Source: a virus
Taxonomy: Duplodnaviria > Caudoviricetes
Length of the DNA: 39,252 nt
IMG/VR virus record: IMGVR_UViG_3300047669_002405
Location: 1-39,252 of that record
Reading direction: 5' to 3' (one strand)
Shown here piece by piece: positions 7,411 through 31,911 of this stretch. Both the position numbers and the translations under genes were made by a program. The notes beneath the pieces were generated by a model. The model did not search any database, was not told the DNA's origin, and saw nothing but the letters and a program-made list of their open reading frames with translations. Position 1 is the stretch's first letter, and each line of letters opens with the position of its first letter.

Positions 7411-8355
7411 TTATATCGTACTATTTTTTAGCTTAAAGTCAACCAAGTACTGCTCTAGTTTGTGCTGGGGAGACCACTTAAGGATGGCTTTGGCTTTAGA
7501 GTTGTCGCAAAGCGTATCTTGAGCTTCCCCTTGCCTTGTGGGTATGTGAGTTATGTTGGTGCTGATTTTTTTAGCTATGTCTAGTATGGAAAAAGATGTG
7601 CCTGAACCTATATTAAAAACTTCTCCAAACGCATCACTATTTTCGCATGATGCGCTGAGTAGGTTTGCTTCAACCACATCTTTTACGTGAGTAAAGTCGC
7701 GTGTCTGGAGACCACGCCCGACGACGGTGAGTGGCTCACCTTGTGAATGTTGGCGTTGGAATAAGCCTATCACCGGCGAATAGAGGCCCTTCGTTGGTTC
7801 CCTCTCGCCGTAAACATTAAAATACCTAAGAGTTATTGTCTTAAGGCCATATATATCGTTGTACACCCTGCAAATCTCTTCCCCCGCTGTTTTAGAGACC
7901 GAGTATGGGTTTAGGCAGTCTTTTGGCATGTCTTCCGTTAACGGGGGTGTATTTTTTCTTCCGTAAGCTGATGAGGTGGATGAGTAGATGACTTTTTCAA
8001 CTTCGTTTTCTCTGCTTGCTTGAAGCACGTTGCATGTACCTACGAAATTCGTGGAGCAAGCTAGTTGGGGGGAATTTACCGTAGGTTGGATTCTGGCTTC
8101 AGCAGCTAGGTGGAATACAGTCTTTGGTTTTTCGTGAGAAAAAATCCAACTTAGAGACTGGGGGTCATTGATGTCTACTGGGTAATTTCTGGCATTGTTA
8201 TTCCAGTAGAACTTTTCATTATGCTCCGCTGATTCATTGTCTACGCAAATTACATTAACGCCGATTCTAACTAATTGGTCTACGAGGTTGCTGCCTATGA
8301 AGCCAGCTCCCCCTGTGACTAGGGCTGTTTTAGATTGTAATAGCTTTAGATTCAT
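7411..8355 (-). CDS. NAD-dependent nucleotide-sugar epimerase (extended SDR)
   Basis: TGGAGFIG, HLAA, SSTSSAYG, YSVSK (YxxxK), LRYFNVYG, RDFTHV. Confidence 0.92.
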   Translation of the reverse strand: MNLKLLQSKTALVTGGAGFIGSNLVDQLVRIGVNVICVDNESAEHNEKFYWNNNARNYPVDINDPQSLSWIFSHEKPKTVFHLAAEARIQPTVNSPQLACSTNFVGTCNVLQASRENEVEKVIYSSTSSAYGRKNTPPLTEDMPKDCLNPYSVSKTAGEEICRVYNDIYGLKTITLRYFNVYGEREPTKGLYSPVIGLFQRQHSQGEPLTVVGRGLQTRDFTHVKDVVEANLLSASCENSDAFGEVFNIGSGTSFSILDIAKKISTNITHIPTRQGEAQDTLCDNSKAKAILKWSPQHKLEQYLVDFKLKNSTI

Positions 8356-10916
8356 TTTTTTAATTCAGATAGCTTGGAATATATTTTAGTGTTCTGGACG
8401 GCTATAGAGTCGGCGAAGACCACTTCGTCTTGCCTCGTGCCTGAGACTATTACGATGTCGCCCTCTTTTGGCAGGGCTCCGTTTGACTCCCTGCAAGTCT
8501 CTAGCTTTTTTGAAAAAATCATAGTCTTAGTCGTCCCTGTTTCGTCGGAACAAAATGCCATGAGGTATTTATTCCCGTTTCTGCTGCGACTCTGGACGAC
8601 CTTATCCCCTATGTAAGATATAAATTTCACCCTTGTCCCCGCAGTCATTTCGTTTATCTGGCGAACGGTATCAAGATTTCGTGTCGTGTTGGAGAAGCAG
8701 TCCCTAAGTGTTCTGTTATACGTGTAGCCAAGTAAGTTCTTTTCGTAATACCAATTAGCGAAGCTTTCAGATTTTCTGTTCTGAGAATAGATTTCCTTAT
8801 ACCCTTGAGCTTTCTTTTTTATGGTTCCCATTCTGCTTTCTTTTATAATGGGCTTGGGCTCTTTCCCCGTTTTGGAGGTTGTCATGGTTTCGGATAATCG
8901 GGTAATTATTTTCACTAGGTCAAAGTCGAGCTTTTCCCCCAGCCCAAGGACTAAGGTCTTCTCTCTCTGAGTTAAGATGTTCCATACTTGAGCTTCGTAA
9001 GCGACCTTTGTCCTGCTTTGCTTGAATCCCTCTAGGGCTCCAGCTTGGATAAGTGCGCTTAATATCCCTATGGGTATTTCGCAATGATTAGCTGCTTCGA
9101 ATATTTGAAATTTATTTGTATATTCCCCCTTGAAGTTCATAAGTTTTTCTAGAGATTTATCGGAAATGCCCTTGATGGATAGCAGTCCAAATCTGATATC
9201 ATCGCCTTCGACACTGAAGTCTATTTTGGATTTAATTAAATGAGGGGGTAGCATTTTTATGCCGAAAAAGTCCATCTCTTTATGTATCTTTGAGATTTCA
9301 GAAATTGGGTCAGGTTCATGCCTCGACATTTTAAGTAAACCCAAAAAGAACTCCTTTGGGTGCTTGAATTTTAAATATACCGTGGCAGCAGCCAGTGCTG
9401 CGTAAGAAATTGAGTGAGACTTATTGAATGAGTAGTTTGCGGAGTCTTCGAGGACTCTCCACAGCACTTCTCCGACCTCTTTATTGAGCTTGTTTTCAGA
9501 GACTTTATCTTTGATTTTCTTTTTCCACTTCCTGACCTCTGAAACTTTTTTCTTACCGACTATTCGTCTTAAAATTTCAGCTTCGTCGAGGGTGAATCCA
9601 ACCTTATGAGCCATCTGCATCATTTGTTCTTGGTAGAGGCAAACTCCGCCCGTTGAGGACAAAATGTCATCGAAGAAGGGTTCTATGGATTCTTTTTCTC
9701 CGTTATTCGTATAGTTTGCGTATTGGTCCACAAAGGCTAGTGCTCCGGGTCGAGCCAGAGCTAGAACCGCGCTTAATTCGTCCAAGTTTTTGGGTCTGAC
9801 TTTCTGGCAAACCCTAAAGTTGGTGTCTGCTTCAATCTGAAATAGTCCGTGAGGTGTACGCAAGTATTGTAGGTTTTCGTATATGATTTCATCATTGAAG
9901 TCTATTTCGTGAGCCTTTATATTCACTTGTTTGCATACATCATCAACCACAGAGACGGCCCTTAGTCCTAGGATGTCCAGCTTAACGTTGAAGATTGAAA
10001 CCCAGTTCATATCGTAAGAGGACACGAATCCGTCTTTTTTTGACGTAAGTTCTGTGGGATAAGATTCTTCGATCTCCCCATAAGAAACAGATATAGCGGA
10101 AGGGTGAACGCCTTTATTTTTTATGAGCTTACTTATTTTAAGGGCCACTTTGTAGGCGTCTTGGTTTTCGTCACACCAAGTGCGGAAGTCAGCAACTTCT
10201 TCGTAAGCTTCTTCTAGACTCTTAACTTGCCCGAACACTTTTGGTATCATTGCGGACACCATGTTCATTTCGGCTTCAGTTTTGCCCCCCACTGTCTTGC
10301 CAGCCTCCTTTATGCAGAGCTTGCCAGTGAAGGTATTTAAGGTAAGAATCTTAGAGGTGCGACCGTGATATTTTTTTTCCAAGTATTTAATCACTTTATG
10401 GCGATTGTGGAAGCAGATGTCTATGTCTACGTCGCACATTAACGCTCCGTCTAAGTAAGTAATGCCATCTACCACCTTTTTCTTGGCGCGTATTTTAGAG
10501 ACGAACCTCTCAAAGAAAAGCCCATGTTTTACTGGGTCTATTTTCGTGACTCCCAGCAAGAACAGAACTATGCTTCCAGCAGCACTTCCCCTCCCTAGCC
10601 CAACGGGAATGTCTTCTTTATCGCAAAACTGAATTACGTCCCATACCATTAGTATGTAATCGACAAAGCCAAGCTCTTTAAGCGTACTGAGTTCGTGCTT
10701 TACTCTGTCGCGATATTTTTCGTAAGCTGGGCTTCCTTTTTCTAGGTCTAGCGAGGTAAATTTTTCCAGACAGGCGTACCGAAGAAAGTTGTAGTTGCTG
10801 AAGTCTCCTTTCAGTCGACTCTTCTCTACGTATTCCTGCGGAACCTCAAAGCGGGGAAGTCTTACGCCGTGAATTTCGAGGTCAATTGATTCAAATTGTT
10901 CTGAAAAATTTTTCAT
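8352..10916 (-). CDS. dnaE: DNA polymerase III alpha-like catalytic core lacking the PHP domain
   Basis: GRGSAAGS, LFFERF, DVDID, KLDILGL, LFQIE, YQEQMM, YSFNKSHS, IRFGLLSIKG and a C-terminal OB-like region. Confidence 0.95.
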   Translation of the reverse strand: MKNFSEQFESIDLEIHGVRLPRFEVPQEYVEKSRLKGDFSNYNFLRYACLEKFTSLDLEKGSPAYEKYRDRVKHELSTLKELGFVDYILMVWDVIQFCDKEDIPVGLGRGSAAGSIVLFLLGVTKIDPVKHGLFFERFVSKIRAKKKVVDGITYLDGALMCDVDIDICFHNRHKVIKYLEKKYHGRTSKILTLNTFTGKLCIKEAGKTVGGKTEAEMNMVSAMIPKVFGQVKSLEEAYEEVADFRTWCDENQDAYKVALKISKLIKNKGVHPSAISVSYGEIEESYPTELTSKKDGFVSSYDMNWVSIFNVKLDILGLRAVSVVDDVCKQVNIKAHEIDFNDEIIYENLQYLRTPHGLFQIEADTNFRVCQKVRPKNLDELSAVLALARPGALAFVDQYANYTNNGEKESIEPFFDDILSSTGGVCLYQEQMMQMAHKVGFTLDEAEILRRIVGKKKVSEVRKWKKKIKDKVSENKLNKEVGEVLWRVLEDSANYSFNKSHSISYAALAAATVYLKFKHPKEFFLGLLKMSRHEPDPISEISKIHKEMDFFGIKMLPPHLIKSKIDFSVEGDDIRFGLLSIKGISDKSLEKLMNFKGEYTNKFQIFEAANHCEIPIGILSALIQAGALEGFKQSRTKVAYEAQVWNILTQREKTLVLGLGEKLDFDLVKIITRLSETMTTSKTGKEPKPIIKESRMGTIKKKAQGYKEIYSQNRKSESFANWYYEKNLLGYTYNRTLRDCFSNTTRNLDTVRQINEMTAGTRVKFISYIGDKVVQSRSRNGNKYLMAFCSDETGTTKTMIFSKKLETCRESNGALPKEGDIVIVSGTRQDEVVFADSIAVQNTKIYSKLSELKK

Positions 10917-11569
10917 ATATCTATCTGGTATTTAATCTTATCCCATACCTTAATGTTTAATTCTAAGTCAATCAGAGCGTTGTGGAGATTTTCGTAATCA
11001 TGTTCGATTCCGAACTCTTGACCGAGAGCCTTTAGGTTAGTTCTTATCCCCTTGATTCTCCGGTTGTTCATGCAGTATTGATACTCCATTAAGTCCGAGT
11101 TTCTGTCATATTTAAAATTGCTTTTCACTCCGCGAGCTAACGCGTTTGTGTCGAGGACTTTACTTACTAGGTGCTTGTAGCAAAATCCGAAACGCTTATA
11201 TAGGTCCTTTATCAGGTACAAATCAAATCCTAGCACGTTGTGTCCGACTATGTAATCTGCGTCATCTAGCCATTCCTTAACGGTTGGGAAAATCTCTTCT
11301 GGAGACTTACCTTTTCTGTCTACTGTTTCTTGAGAGTATCGCGTGATGCGGGCTGCGTCGTCGCTAATTTTTAAGTTAGTGTCCCATTTTATCAAAAAAT
11401 CTTTGCTATCGAGGGTTTCTGAGTCTGCTCCAGATTTTCCGCTGCGACATTTTATCATAGCTATTTGCCAAGGAAGGTTATGGCAAGAGTTTAACGCTAG
11501 GTTGAGCGTTTCACAATCCACAAAGACGTACGTGCTTTTCCTGTCGAATCTTATAAGCGGGGCTGTCAT
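10913..11569 (-). CDS. DEDDh 3'-5' exonuclease (DnaQ/epsilon-like)
   Basis: VDCET, GHNVLGFD, HNALID. The start at 11569 (MTAPL) overlaps the PHP gene stop as ATGA. Confidence 0.9.
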   Translation of the reverse strand: MTAPLIRFDRKSTYVFVDCETLNLALNSCHNLPWQIAMIKCRSGKSGADSETLDSKDFLIKWDTNLKISDDAARITRYSQETVDRKGKSPEEIFPTVKEWLDDADYIVGHNVLGFDLYLIKDLYKRFGFCYKHLVSKVLDTNALARGVKSNFKYDRNSDLMEYQYCMNNRRIKGIRTNLKALGQEFGIEHDYENLHNALIDLELNIKVWDKIKYQIDI

Positions 11570-12315
11570 CGTTGAAGTGCCTCCATGCAAAATTCGTTGC
11601 TGCTCATATGGTCTAAGTTCGGTTTGTCTAGGCAACTTCGGGAGTTAATACATCTGAACGCTAGGTAAGACTTAAAGTCATCTTTTTTCTTATAAAATAT
11701 GCTCTTAACTTTTAATATGTTGTCTTTGGACTTGTTGTATTTTTGCATAGCCCTGTCTATTAGGTAGTTGAAGGGGAGGTCGTTATCTTCCGAGAGGAAA
11801 ATCGGTTCACAAAAAGAGAGGTCTGGTGTGCAGGATTTACAGTTCAGGGTATTCTGATGAATGAATGAATCATAGAATGGAATCGCCACTATTATGTCGT
11901 CAGGGGAATACTGCTCTCGAATAGACTTATAATCAGTTCTGGGGGCATAATAAAAGCCGTCGAGACTGGCTTTGGTGTAAATTTTAATTAATTTTTTGTA
12001 CCCATTTTTGTTCCTCGCGAATAAAACGACTTTCGAGGTCCCCTGAAGGGATTCTTCGTCTTTCTGAAATAGGTCCGAGCATACATTCATGCGTAAACCA
12101 AAGATGAATTTTATTTTGTTTTCCAAACAGTTGTGGTAGGCCTGAAGGTAGCCACTCATATTGTCATCTACTAGATATAATTCTTTAAGACCGTTCTCTA
12201 TACATATATCTATTATAGAGTCGGGCCCGTTACCTGAGCCTGTGGATGCTTCGTTTAGGGTTAATATGGACTTGCCTAGGCTGTAGTGAGATTTAAACAG
12301 AGGTATTGTGTCCAT
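11566..12315 (-). CDS. Stand-alone DnaE-type PHP domain with degenerate metal ligands
   Basis: FKSHYSLGKS, FIFGLR, VLFARNKNGYKKLIKI, GFYYAPRTD align with the DnaE N-terminus. Confidence 0.85.
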   Translation of the reverse strand: MDTIPLFKSHYSLGKSILTLNEASTGSGNGPDSIIDICIENGLKELYLVDDNMSGYLQAYHNCLENKIKFIFGLRMNVCSDLFQKDEESLQGTSKVVLFARNKNGYKKLIKIYTKASLDGFYYAPRTDYKSIREQYSPDDIIVAIPFYDSFIHQNTLNCKSCTPDLSFCEPIFLSEDNDLPFNYLIDRAMQKYNKSKDNILKVKSIFYKKKDDFKSYLAFRCINSRSCLDKPNLDHMSSNEFCMEALQR

Positions 12316-26972: not shown

Positions 26973-27803
26973 TTAAAAATCGACACCAGAAAGGGCGTCG
27001 CACATTTTTTTGAGTTCTGTCGTGTCTGGGCGGAACCCTAGTCTTCCGTGGTGAGTCAAGCTTATCTCTGGGTCTAGCCAAATATTTCCACCGATATCAG
27101 ACCATCTTTTGCAGAACGTATAGTCTTCGGACAGGTAGTGGTTGTTATCTTCTATATTGTGAGATGTGTCGAATAAGCTGTAAAGGTTTTCCCTGCACTT
27201 ACTTATAGTATCTACGGACGCAGACTTACTGTTTAGTAACCCACGGTCTATATCTGTAGTGTAATGTAAGTCAGGGTGAGCCTCCTGAAGTTTTTTTATC
27301 ACTTTTCTGTTTATGCACATAAACCCTGTTCCTGAATTTAGTACTGGGTATACAGTTTGGCGTTCAGAAATAATTGAGGGTTTCGCTCCCTTCGCTGGGT
27401 TGACTACGTATCTTTGTTTACCGCCGTCTTTTTCTTGGGGCAACATCTTCAATGGATAAGCGCCAACTGATACGCCCTTGTTGCAGGAGATCAACCTAAG
27501 TATATCTTCTGGTTTCCACTCAATGTCTCCGTCTATAAAAAGTAGGTGAGTCGCATCACTGGCCATAAAGAAGGAGCACAAATGATTCCTTCCCCTAGTA
27601 ATTAAGCTCTCACCTCCGATGAACCTGATTTCGCACCTAATGCTATGTTTATGCAGCAGGAAAACGCTTCCAAGTAAAGACATGACGTACTCTTGCATCA
27701 TGTTTCCGCCGTAGCACGGAGTAGCTATGTAAAGGTGTACGTCCTTAAAGGCCTCTGGCGGTAGCTCAGGTGATTCCGAATCGTTAAGAACGTCTAATTC
27801 CAT
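26973..27803 (-). CDS. GT2-like glycosyltransferase
   Basis: IATPCYGG, ESLITRGRN, THLLFIDGDI, GTGFMCI, LSEDYTFC..W...GG.IWLD; start 27803 (or 27812). Confidence 0.85.
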   Translation of the reverse strand: MELDVLNDSESPELPPEAFKDVHLYIATPCYGGNMMQEYVMSLLGSVFLLHKHSIRCEIRFIGGESLITRGRNHLCSFFMASDATHLLFIDGDIEWKPEDILRLISCNKGVSVGAYPLKMLPQEKDGGKQRYVVNPAKGAKPSIISERQTVYPVLNSGTGFMCINRKVIKKLQEAHPDLHYTTDIDRGLLNSKSASVDTISKCRENLYSLFDTSHNIEDNNHYLSEDYTFCKRWSDIGGNIWLDPEISLTHHGRLGFRPDTTELKKMCDALSGVDF

Positions 27804-27810
27804 GAGCGTC

Positions 27811-27839
27811 ATACTGCGCTTTACTTGCTCGTAGGTCAA
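27811..27839 (-). promoter_or_regulatory. Possible sigma70-like promoter
   Basis: TTGACC-N17-CAGTAT-N7-ATG(27803); weak -10. Confidence 0.4.
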
Positions 27840-27869
27840 GGTTCGTGTGATAATTTTTCTTCTAGAAGA

Positions 27870-28224
27870 ATACAACACCCCCCCTGTTTAAGAGGGGAAG
27901 TGTTGCAAAGCGTGTGCTGCTTTTTCTACTTAGCCCAGTGTTTTTAACATGGATGGGTCATTCCACTACACGCTGCAAATCAGTTTAGAACTGAGCCTAA
28001 CTACCTTTCGGCGGGAGAAACCGTACCACAGAAAACTCCTCTTACGTTAAGCCACCTAGCTTTCGCTAACGATGGGGCAAACCTTGGTAATTAACCAAGT
28101 GTTTTTTTGATTATATGCAGTTTATAATCGGTCATCCCTTGATTCAGAGGTAGACCAGCCTCCACTCCTACTTTACTTCAGATATCTCAGGGAAACTCTA
28201 CTGTTTTCTCTCAGCGAGCTTAAC
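27870..28224 (-). ncRNA. Candidate large structured non-coding RNA of unknown class
   Basis: ORF-free ~355 nt with about 10 stems, two GAAA tetraloops, G-U pairs favouring the minus strand, a long-range stem and possible pseudoknots. Confidence 0.65.
27871..27907 (-). terminator. Terminal hairpin or possible intrinsic terminator of the candidate ncRNA
   Basis: CAACAC-UU-CCCCU...AGGGG-GG-GUGUUG followed by UAUUCUUCU on the minus strand. Confidence 0.5.
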
Positions 28225-28653
28225 TCAAAGTTGATCCAAATCATCACTCGTTTTTTTATCTGAGTCAAGAAGGAAAGTGGCCATGAACGCTAAGTTCCTC
28301 AAATCCTTAACGGTTAAGCTCAACGGGTTAGCTTCACTTTCGAAGGTTTCGGTTTTAGCGCAGAATTGATTTATACTTCCCGCCACTAAATTAGCCGTGT
28401 CTAAATCTAGCTCTAAGTCTTGAGACATGGACTGAAGCGATTTATTTAAAACAAAATATTCAGTCCCTCCAACTTTTTGAGATGAAATTACCTTATGGTC
28501 TTCTAGGTCCTTTAACGCTGCCTGAACCGCTGCCAACTCAGCGTTTTCGTCTTCAGAAATAAGTAAAACCGTTGACAGGTCCCTCCCCAAAACGAACACG
28601 TCGTTTTCTTTGTAGTATTTTAAAAGTTCCTCAGTCGCCTCGCAAACTGTCAT
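28225..28653 (-). CDS. Hypothetical protein directly upstream of the candidate ncRNA
   Basis: 142-aa ORF with its own promoter; N-terminal half has a winged-helix-like pattern (weak). Confidence 0.7.
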   Translation of the reverse strand: MTVCEATEELLKYYKENDVFVLGRDLSTVLLISEDENAELAAVQAALKDLEDHKVISSQKVGGTEYFVLNKSLQSMSQDLELDLDTANLVAGSINQFCAKTETFESEANPLSLTVKDLRNLAFMATFLLDSDKKTSDDLDQL

Positions 28654-28658
28654 CTAGA

Positions 28659-28687
28659 AGCATGGTTCAGCTTTCCGGTAAAGTCAA
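28659..28687 (-). promoter_or_regulatory. sigma70-like promoter (leftward of divergent pair)
   Basis: TTGACT-N17-CATGCT-N5-ATG(28653). Confidence 0.55.
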
Positions 28688-28702
28688 ACAAGATCACCGA
28701 GC

Positions 28703-28731
28703 TTGACATTGCCCCATGAATTGGATATATT
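28703..28731 (+). promoter_or_regulatory. sigma70-like promoter (rightward of divergent pair), probably leaderless
   Basis: TTGACA-N17-TATATT-N6-ATG(28738). Confidence 0.75.
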
Positions 28732-28737
28732 AGAAGA

Positions 28738-31834: not shown

Positions 31835-31911
31835 GCTCCAGTAGCTCAACTGGCTAGAGCACGTGCCTTATAAGCGCGAGGTTACGGGTTCAAGGCCCGT
31901 TTGGAGCACCA
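31835..31911 (+). tRNA. tRNA-Ile(TAT)
   Basis: GCTCCAG/TTGGAGC; anticodon arm CGTGC-CTTATAA-GCGCG; CCA end. Confidence 0.92.

Follow-up and report, generated by a model that had tools for sequence, protein, structure and literature searches.

The locus and its homologs

The window, the whole stretch of 39,252 nucleotides that was analysed, is a 25%-complete virus record encoding DnaE-type polymerase subunits, a DnaB-like helicase, a primase, RecA, ribonucleotide reductase and four tRNAs; the records of its relatives reach 158–178 kb. The RNA runs that contain the stretch are labelled aquatic or seawater. Between a 142-aa gene on one side and a phrog_1574 gene, followed by a dNMP kinase gene, on the other, the called ORFs leave a gap of 346 nt (27879–28224). 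As a preliminary description had noticed, this is the longest stretch free of ORFs and tRNAs, and it holds no tmRNA. Here lies a structured noncoding RNA, called family A, 430 nt from the point where the genes of the window diverge and at the head of a 25-kb arm of genes on one strand. The features of the locus are the following, with X and X' denoting the two copies of a repeat:

28654–28737, no strand: point from which the replication-gene arm runs leftward and the other arm rightward; long relatives are arranged alike
28225–28653, minus: 142-aa gene with a predicted N-terminal winged-helix fold, the usual upstream neighbour of the RNA
28240–28268, minus: promoter-like site of sigma70 type (a 9-of-12 match), which overlaps the 142-aa ORF at its end
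27844–28233, minus: structured noncoding RNA element, family A, seen from homologs and covariation and, weakly, from RNA-library contigs at 27952–28224 and 27845–28087
27910–27933, minus: X, the purine-rich internal counterpart of X', in most homologs longer by one base close to the 5' end
27844–27865, minus: X', downstream copy, followed by AT-rich DNA in homologs; proposed landing site of X on the template strand

We infer a 5' end at about 28233–28224; the 3' end would fall either just past a terminator-like hairpin or, through X', at 27844. The interval of 27870–28224 given earlier is too short, as the element reaches to X'. At this edge, a 301-aa ORF (26973–27878) is called from a GTG at 27878, and its homolog at locus L001 begins at the equivalent of 27812. 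The ORF is probably called too long and, given the start in L001, X' is probably noncoding.

Homologs were collected with pattern scans, whose pattern favours one subgroup, and with scans anchored on neighbouring genes, giving at least 443 loci. An iterated HMM (E < 1e-5) matched at least 196 of 444 sequences, the window included, of which 180 were full-length and 16 partial; collapsing the 180 left at least 114 distinct full-length copies of family A. With five truncated copies dropped, 109 copies (effective number 68) entered a wide alignment with a mean identity of 58% and a minimum of 40%; this alignment is sequence-based and its variable helices are misaligned. Eight close homologs are 80% identical by alignment column, and in the five more distant of them the upstream protein is only 28–39% identical. 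Among 20 pattern matches in prokaryote genomes, one was a true homolog; it matches phage locus L229 and is probably a phage contig within a bin.

Searched at gathering score with Rfam 15, including GOLLD, ROOL, OLE, HEARO, raiA, ribozymes and introns, the window gave its four tRNAs only, and the novelty suggested earlier stands against this collection. A local Rfam scan of the element yielded five chance-level matches and no family, 20 short homolog loci at E ≤ 10 yielded nine weak matches, all far under gathering, and 20 diverse homolog loci yielded two tRNAs only. The lack of tmRNA, RNase P, tRNA and intron hallmarks that had been reported was borne out by Rfam and by ARAGORN, which found no tmRNA in the window. 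A tmRNA would be recognised by a tRNA-like domain with G3-U70 and CCA and by a tag reading frame, and indels in close homologs of the element shift the frame. RNase P RNA is characterised by the P4 pseudoknot and the conserved regions CR-I to CR-V; Rfam gave no match to it, and the invariant columns of family A do not fit CR-I to CR-V. Nor did Rfam match the Polynucleobacter-1 motif (RF01718; available text of PMC2864571) in the window or in 40 homolog loci. Searches of the openly accessible literature turned up no description of family A or of the family B RNAs introduced below. Searches by motif and contig id in the supplements of PMC10690425 other than files 1 and 2, which may list fragments, were empty, and bioRxiv 10.64898/2026.09.15.751765 held no passage matching the search terms.

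The 142-aa gene lies within 700 nt upstream of the RNA in 65 of 84 homolog loci. The N-terminus of its protein is predicted with a pLDDT of 89.5 and superposes with Z up to 9.2 and an rmsd of 1.6 over 67 residues; Foldseek gave no match at E ≤ 0.001 for this protein and the Atlas gave sub-0.9 leads only. We also note a DUF736-like gene three genes downstream of the RNA, a family that we take to have a single-strand-binding fold. No nuclease, recombinase or reverse transcriptase gene of the kind found with OMEGA, bridge, DGR or retron RNAs adjoins the element, the neighbours being winged-helix, dNMP kinase and phrog_1574 genes.

On its own, the promoter-like site of the window is not significant. 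Across the family, a TTGAC-17-TAnnnT-like site is found directly upstream in 85 of 114 homologs, against 7.2 (maximum 13) in shuffles, and the RNA is likely to have its own promoter. Cotranscription with the 142-aa gene, proposed in the preliminary description, is therefore probably not the main mode, and some homologs are away from, or opposite to, that gene. In the window, no plus-strand promoter-like site faces the RNA within 27700–28700. Nine contig pieces were found in four RNA libraries, five of them on the element, which is covered in three of the four runs; one piece ends at 28224, one reaches 27845, and one contig runs unspliced through X and X'. The flanking genes are partly covered too, and stretches without a contig carry no information. 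RNA reads had been suggested earlier as a source for strand and ends: the contigs cover the element and display neither, and they are weakly suggestive of transcription.

Fold of the family A RNA

The minus strand folds better than its shuffles (−108.4 kcal/mol, z −2.88, 0 of 100 shuffles as good) and better than the plus strand (−93.5 kcal/mol, z −2.12, 3 of 100). The earlier remark that A–C mismatches of the plus strand become G–U pairs on the minus strand agrees with the homologs, in which one-sided changes keep the pairs as G–U there. Against a null of 12 tree-shuffled alignments, 20 column pairs of the wide alignment (n = 109) covary at E ≤ 0.1, and covariation among homologous intervals, named earlier as a check, is thereby found. 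Nineteen of the pairs are at least 81% canonical, the one without explanation being 28100:28028. The covarying pairs define P1, P4, P7, P8, P10, stem 1 of an H-type pseudoknot, a 2-bp helix and a linker pairing between 28101–28104 and 28018–28021. These data support family A as a novel large structured phage noncoding RNA on the minus strand. For the eight close homologs, a model of 96 pairs is 97.8% paired and has 21 compensatory pairs, against 8.2 in shuffles (0 of 500), figures that lean in the model's favour, as it was drawn from the same eight sequences.

We complemented these statistics with anchored tests on 69 nonredundant homologs, in which strands are compared with their own and with other homologs' partners in pairs below 65% identity and the outcome is given as better/tie/worse counts; four mismatched control combinations were flat. 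The elements of the fold, in the order of the RNA, are as follows:

28193–28221, minus: first hairpin, P1/P1a, with covarying pairs 28217:28197, 28216:28198 and 28213:28202
28130–28192, minus: multiloop P2 with hairpin P2b (28147–28162), 3 of 4 P2b pairs compensatory
Within 28130–28192, minus: pseudoknot 1, P2b loop 28153–28156 with 28130–28133, 3 of 4 pairs compensatory
28109–28129, minus: hairpin P3, missing in a few homologs (anchored tests 24/5/1 and 10/19/1 are listed for this entry)
28116–28120 with 27973–27977, minus: kissing pseudoknot 2, formed by the P3 loop, covarying
28018–28104, minus: core, with pseudoknot 3 between the A-rich linker 28101–28104 and 28018–28021 (28103:28019, G = 73)
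28083–28099, minus: P4 (28099:28083, G = 100)
28053–28082, minus: 2-bp helix, invariant CCC/GG segment and candidate bulge-loop contact (28081:28072, E = 0.08; 28068:28025, E = 0.33)
27981–28052, minus: three-way junction of P7 (28046–28052/27995–28001), P8 (28036–28039/28014–28017) and P9 (28003–28012), then P10 (27981–27993), from covariation and the close-homolog model
27968–27973, minus: strand Z, pairing with 27910–27915 (25/1/8)
27934–27973, minus: H-type pseudoknot, stem 1 (27962–27966/27949–27953) covarying, candidate stem 2 at 27954–27957/27934–27937
27871–27907, minus: terminator-like hairpin with an invariant G run, with covariation among homologs

Among the tertiary contacts, the kissing pseudoknot 2 scored 24/5/1, a covariation compatible with an intramolecular or an intermolecular contact, and the linker pseudoknot 3 scored 14/20/0. 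Pseudoknot 1, the GGUC/GACC pairing already proposed, is moderately supported (21/3/10); stem 2 of the H-type knot scored 13/10/10 and the bulge-loop contact 6/23/5. The U-rich strand 28032–28035 may form base triples at pseudoknot 3. Column 28053 has possible alternative pairings, as it covaries with 27899 (E = 0.17) and matches 27876.

Part of the secondary structure read from the single sequence survives this comparison. Covariation among homologs backs the hairpins at 28078–28104, 28109–28129, 28147–28162, 27980–27994 and 27871–27907. The AGCGTGT/ACACGCT stem is invariant in the eight close homologs but covaries only moderately in the wide set, and the stem closing 28136–28192 is 85% paired but has zero compensatory pairs. 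The presumed hairpin 27934–27957 is better read as one stem, candidate stem 2, of the H-type pseudoknot; the two GAAA loops belong to the window's subfamily and are not conserved beyond it. Two long-range proposals are not upheld. The GTTAAGC/GCTTAAC pseudoknot has 0 compensatory pairs and 500 of 500 shuffles are as good, because 28046–28052 pairs with 27995–28001 instead (5 of 7 pairs compensatory), and the strands of the supposed helix between 28192–28210 and 28015–28039 covary with other partners.

Three further candidates were rejected. A stem closing the 5' and 3' ends, seen in five close homologs, is absent from the top covarying pairs of the wide set; a permuted tRNA-like domain lacks a CCA, and the closest relatives of the window do not have its T-arm-like hairpin; and the GGU loop that might bind a tRNA CCA varies. 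Many homologs (e.g., L206, L221, L239 and L261) do start at the 5' end with a 5-bp hairpin carrying a T-loop-like loop of 7 nt, which is absent in the window, L001 and L002.

A repeat at the RNA's end and other RNAs at the locus

Missing from the preliminary description were a repeat pair, internal and 3'-terminal, and an alternative RNA family at the same locus, which together point to a cis-acting role of the RNA at its own DNA. The repeat is about 22 nt long, with X placed after the H-type pseudoknot and X' after the terminator-like hairpin, and the two copies are separated in family A by 52–77 nt. In 109 homologs, X scored 26.7 against its own X' and 15.2 against the X' of other homologs, a control segment further downstream giving 11.3 and 11.0, respectively. 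Across 54 disjoint pairs, the own X/X' match was better in 45, tied in eight and worse in one. Both halves of X match by lineage, with counts of 31/1/2 and 32/2/0 for pairs below 65% identity and 18/15/1 and 20/11/3 for pairs below 85%. On average, 19.7 of 24.4 aligned positions are identical, and the extra base falls within the first five of X in 62 of 69 homologs. The substitutions between X and X' (G>A 48 versus A>G 10; C>T 20 versus T>C 11) reveal no clean wobble bias.

Such an identity might arise if both copies paired with a third strand of the RNA. The 3' half of X does pair with strand Z, and Z modestly resembles the strand after the hairpin (19/8/7). Z and X' do not covary, however (17/3/14 and 14/10/10), nor does X' with the U-rich strand (13/6/15), and a sliding search inside the RNA detected no partner for either copy's 5' half, leaving none overall beyond Z. 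As no covarying partner was found, a third RNA strand does not explain the X/X' identity; with same-strand identity and no such partner, X is favoured to pair with the complement of X', the template strand. By its sequence, X could thus form pairs with the template strand close to where the RNA ends, a statement about capacity. The 5' half of X is purine-rich, and purine-rich RNA favours RNA–DNA hybrids; the 40 nt after X' have an AT fraction of 0.72–0.80, and among motifs there only −35-like words are enriched. In two records (G001 and G017), X finds its best genome-wide match at X'. This does not hold for the window, G036 and G022, and targeting, if it occurs, would have to depend on proximity. 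Further copies of X' sought in the flanks or the window were no better than chance. Similarity of X' tracks that of the neighbour protein, but no better than it tracks the kinase, and may be plain kinship.

In many relatives without family A, the 142-aa gene is followed by another conserved RNA of about 430 nt, family B, found at 31 loci (26 distinct):

L197:2030–2470 and 30 other loci (e.g., L203, L227, L231, L256, L262 and L265): family B, with its own promoter-like site

No cross-match was obtained between families A and B (best E 0.76 and 2.4), and the family B loci scanned gave no Rfam match. Family B is without the G-run hairpin. It has internal and terminal copies of its own, mostly 175–198 nt apart, the own copy being the best match in 7 of 11 divergent members (two of those rows are mis-parsed), and in its alignment the internal copy is seen to have one base more, close to the 5' end. 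Among 80 kinase-anchored loci, which include near-duplicates and in which seven A labels were given for a match at another place in the record, 43 carried A, 31 B, six neither and none both. With both HMMs, four of 11 long records, most of them incomplete, had one A, four one B, three neither and none both; those with neither are 83%, 54% and 19% complete. In a quick tree of 55 neighbour-protein rows, A and B are interleaved, with five to seven changes, at least two of them forced by well-supported branches.

Two loci add variants of the same place. At L252:2104–2520 stands a third candidate structured RNA, family C, with a short internal/terminal repeat differing by one base and then short tandem repeats; it has no homolog among the collected loci. 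At locus L246 (G028:125530–125650), which has neither A nor B, the stretch from the 142-aa gene to the kinase still has a promoter-like site, AT-rich DNA, short repeats and a run of purines resembling X'.

The position of the RNA recurs as well. It is within 3 kb of the strongest gene-strand divergence in seven of eight long records, the eighth lying at the 97th percentile, and GC-skew switching at the RNA is at the 97th percentile or higher in six of the eight. GC skew otherwise tracks gene strand. A test of skew at fourfold-degenerate sites, setting replication against gene strand in three near-complete genomes, placed an origin near the RNA in G036 (two of three measures) and placed none there in G001 and G023.

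Candidate roles and the phages that carry the RNA

Our tentative reading, possible though well short of established, is that family A is a cis-acting replication-origin RNA in which X pairs anew with the template strand at X', starting an R-loop. Past the X/X' sequence match, every step is conjectural. The RNA would be transcribed from its own promoter, with read-through of the terminator-like hairpin to X', and its cotranscriptional folding would present the purine-rich X after the pseudoknot. X would invade behind the RNA polymerase at X', freeing its own 3' half from strand Z, and the R-loop would spread into the AT-rich DNA. The phage DnaB-like helicase and primase could then load on the displaced strand, and the RNA end, with or without trimming, could prime the phage DnaE polymerase. 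A broader version, which we regard as doubtful, sees interchangeable large RNA machines of at least two unrelated folds at one locus, performing protein-free, self-guided strand invasion through a bulged internal guide, origin opening and priming.

The fold, the lineage-matched X/X' with its one-base insertion, the AT-rich DNA after X', the single copy per record examined, the position at gene divergence, the replacement by an unrelated RNA of the same design and a phage that encodes DnaE, a DnaB-like helicase and a primase all fit an origin RNA. Less favourable to it are the strand-corrected skew, which agrees in one of three genomes only, the six of 80 loci and three of 11 long records with neither RNA, the three of five correctly parsed records in which X' is not the best genome-wide match of X, the ambiguous X/X' substitutions and the pairing of the 3' half of X to Z. 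The scan of 109 of the 151 ORFs of G001 revealed no RNase H, and divergent early promoters would place the RNA identically without an origin.

The closest functional parallel is ColE1 RNA II. In the sections available of PMC5043065 and PMC4412123, it is a noncoding RNA with a dedicated promoter that uses its fold and a template-pairing segment to form a persistent hybrid at the origin, and its rG stretch must pair with a template dC stretch (PMC4412123); the origin reading of family A follows this logic. The promoter-like site upstream of family A resembles, as a pattern match, the dedicated promoter of such a primer RNA. The two RNAs have no sequence or Rfam relation. ColE1, as those sections describe it, employs a simple rG/dC stretch, host Pol I and the antisense RNA I, whereas family A has a mixed, lineage-specific, bulged copy of about 22 nt, a pseudoknot-rich core and a phage of about 160 kb with its own DnaE, and priming is a proposal. 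In T4, a phage with its own replisome, oriF and oriG consist of a promoter and an AT-rich unwinding element, and oriE, oriF and oriG lie near transcription divergence (PMC3016281, parts accessible); family A likewise has a promoter-like site, then AT-rich DNA, near divergence. According to the same parts of that source, T4 R-loops are sequence-independent, with minimal origins of about 100 bp and no conserved RNA fold, in contrast to the conserved fold and X/X' of family A. Taken together, family A might tentatively be seen as the logic of an origin-primer RNA in a previously undescribed fold.

The X/X' identity has been read above as a guide, and it could instead belong to an RNA switch or self-processing ribozyme in which X and X' alternately occupy one surface of the core and drive 3' cleavage, ligation or hairpin excision: the 3' half of X would pair with Z or with the strand after the G run, and X' would displace X. 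The alternative pairings of column 28053 (with 27899 and 27876), the modest likeness of Z to the post-hairpin strand and a ribozyme-like complexity of six candidate pseudoknots and invariant unpaired bases speak for such a switch. We consider it unlikely, as Z and X' do not covary, the search revealed no RNA partner for either 5' half and Rfam matched no ribozyme or intron; moreover, the nine contig pieces from four RNA runs contain no X–X' joint and one contig is unspliced through both, which is weak evidence. Improbable to a similar degree is a trans-acting ornate RNA in the sense of GOLLD and ROOL (a scaffold, oligomer or protein sponge), with X and X' serving as tandem sites for a phage protein such as the winged-helix neighbours. 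A promoter and a terminator-like hairpin of its own, a kissing loop that might join two molecules, contigs in three of four runs, the winged-helix neighbour and the tracking of X' with neighbour proteins would suit such an RNA. Still, that tracking is no better than with the kinase, the fixed one-base insertion and the spacings of 52–77 nt (A) and 175–198 nt (B) are odd for one protein site, and a one-for-one swap with an unrelated fold at one locus is not obviously expected. GOLLD and ROOL are likewise large multi-pseudoknot phage RNAs without assigned function (PMC12286853, available text), and the likeness to them drawn in the preliminary description holds for family A as an ornate phage RNA and no further. 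It is about 340–400 nt long, against 659 and over 800 in the examples cited there, has no Rfam match and a self-matching repeat, and occupies a winged-helix/dNMP-kinase locus, not tRNA islands.

A hybrid of X with the template at X' could also terminate, antiterminate or activate transcription of the downstream replication operon. The RNA heads a 25-kb gene arm, its terminator-like hairpin has a possible alternative pairing and, in a large minority of homologs, a promoter-like site follows closely after X'. Many homologs are nevertheless without such a site, the −35 box lies at distances from X' that differ by tens of bases, the downstream genes differ, some homologs face away from the operon and family B is without the G-run hairpin, and we deem such control quite unlikely. 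Descent from a known family, be it tmRNA, RNase P RNA, Y RNA, group I or II intron, GOLLD or ROOL, is highly improbable. The length is near that of tmRNA and RNase P, and many homologs start with a T-arm-like hairpin stacked on P1, but the window and its closest relatives have no such hairpin, two of four family A records (G001 and G023) have a tmRNA gene besides, and the window and 40 homolog loci gave no Rfam match at gathering or at a useful E-value.

For most large ornate RNAs of phages there is neither an assigned function nor a handle for testing one. Family A has such a handle in its lineage-specific X/X' match, which can be broken and restored, and in the second, unrelated fold of the same layout that substitutes for it. 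If true, the origin reading would extend RNA-primed initiation from plasmids to large phages and provide a natural RNA guiding itself into duplex DNA. Even if it fails, two uncatalogued RNA classes of about 350–450 nt with several covarying pseudoknots are good targets for cryo-EM and ribozyme screens.

BLAST against 50,697 GenBank phages returned no match for the RNA, for homolog L222 or for the 142-aa protein, and DnaE was at most 32% identical among the matches listed; on these grounds no cultured relative or host was identified. A search with RNR-beta homologues indicated no host. In the window (8352–12315), and likewise in relatives, separate genes encode the PHP, exonuclease and polymerase parts of the DnaE-type polymerase. 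The window also encodes a tRNA-Ile with a UAU anticodon (31835–31911), a type rare in bacteria, and G023 has one too. The 158-kb relative G001 encodes a tubulin/FtsZ-like protein, three sigma-70-type proteins and a TnpB-like gene (for the set jointly, L461:9983–11143, L458:14123–14740, L459:17040–17990, L461:2242–2949 and L459:8130–9635), its TnpB lying about 18 kb from the RNA. Four records carry phage-encoded tmRNAs with unusually long, related tag peptides (G001:63676–64080, G023:70910–71327, G022:16002–16402 and G017:28732–29158), which could help to identify the host.
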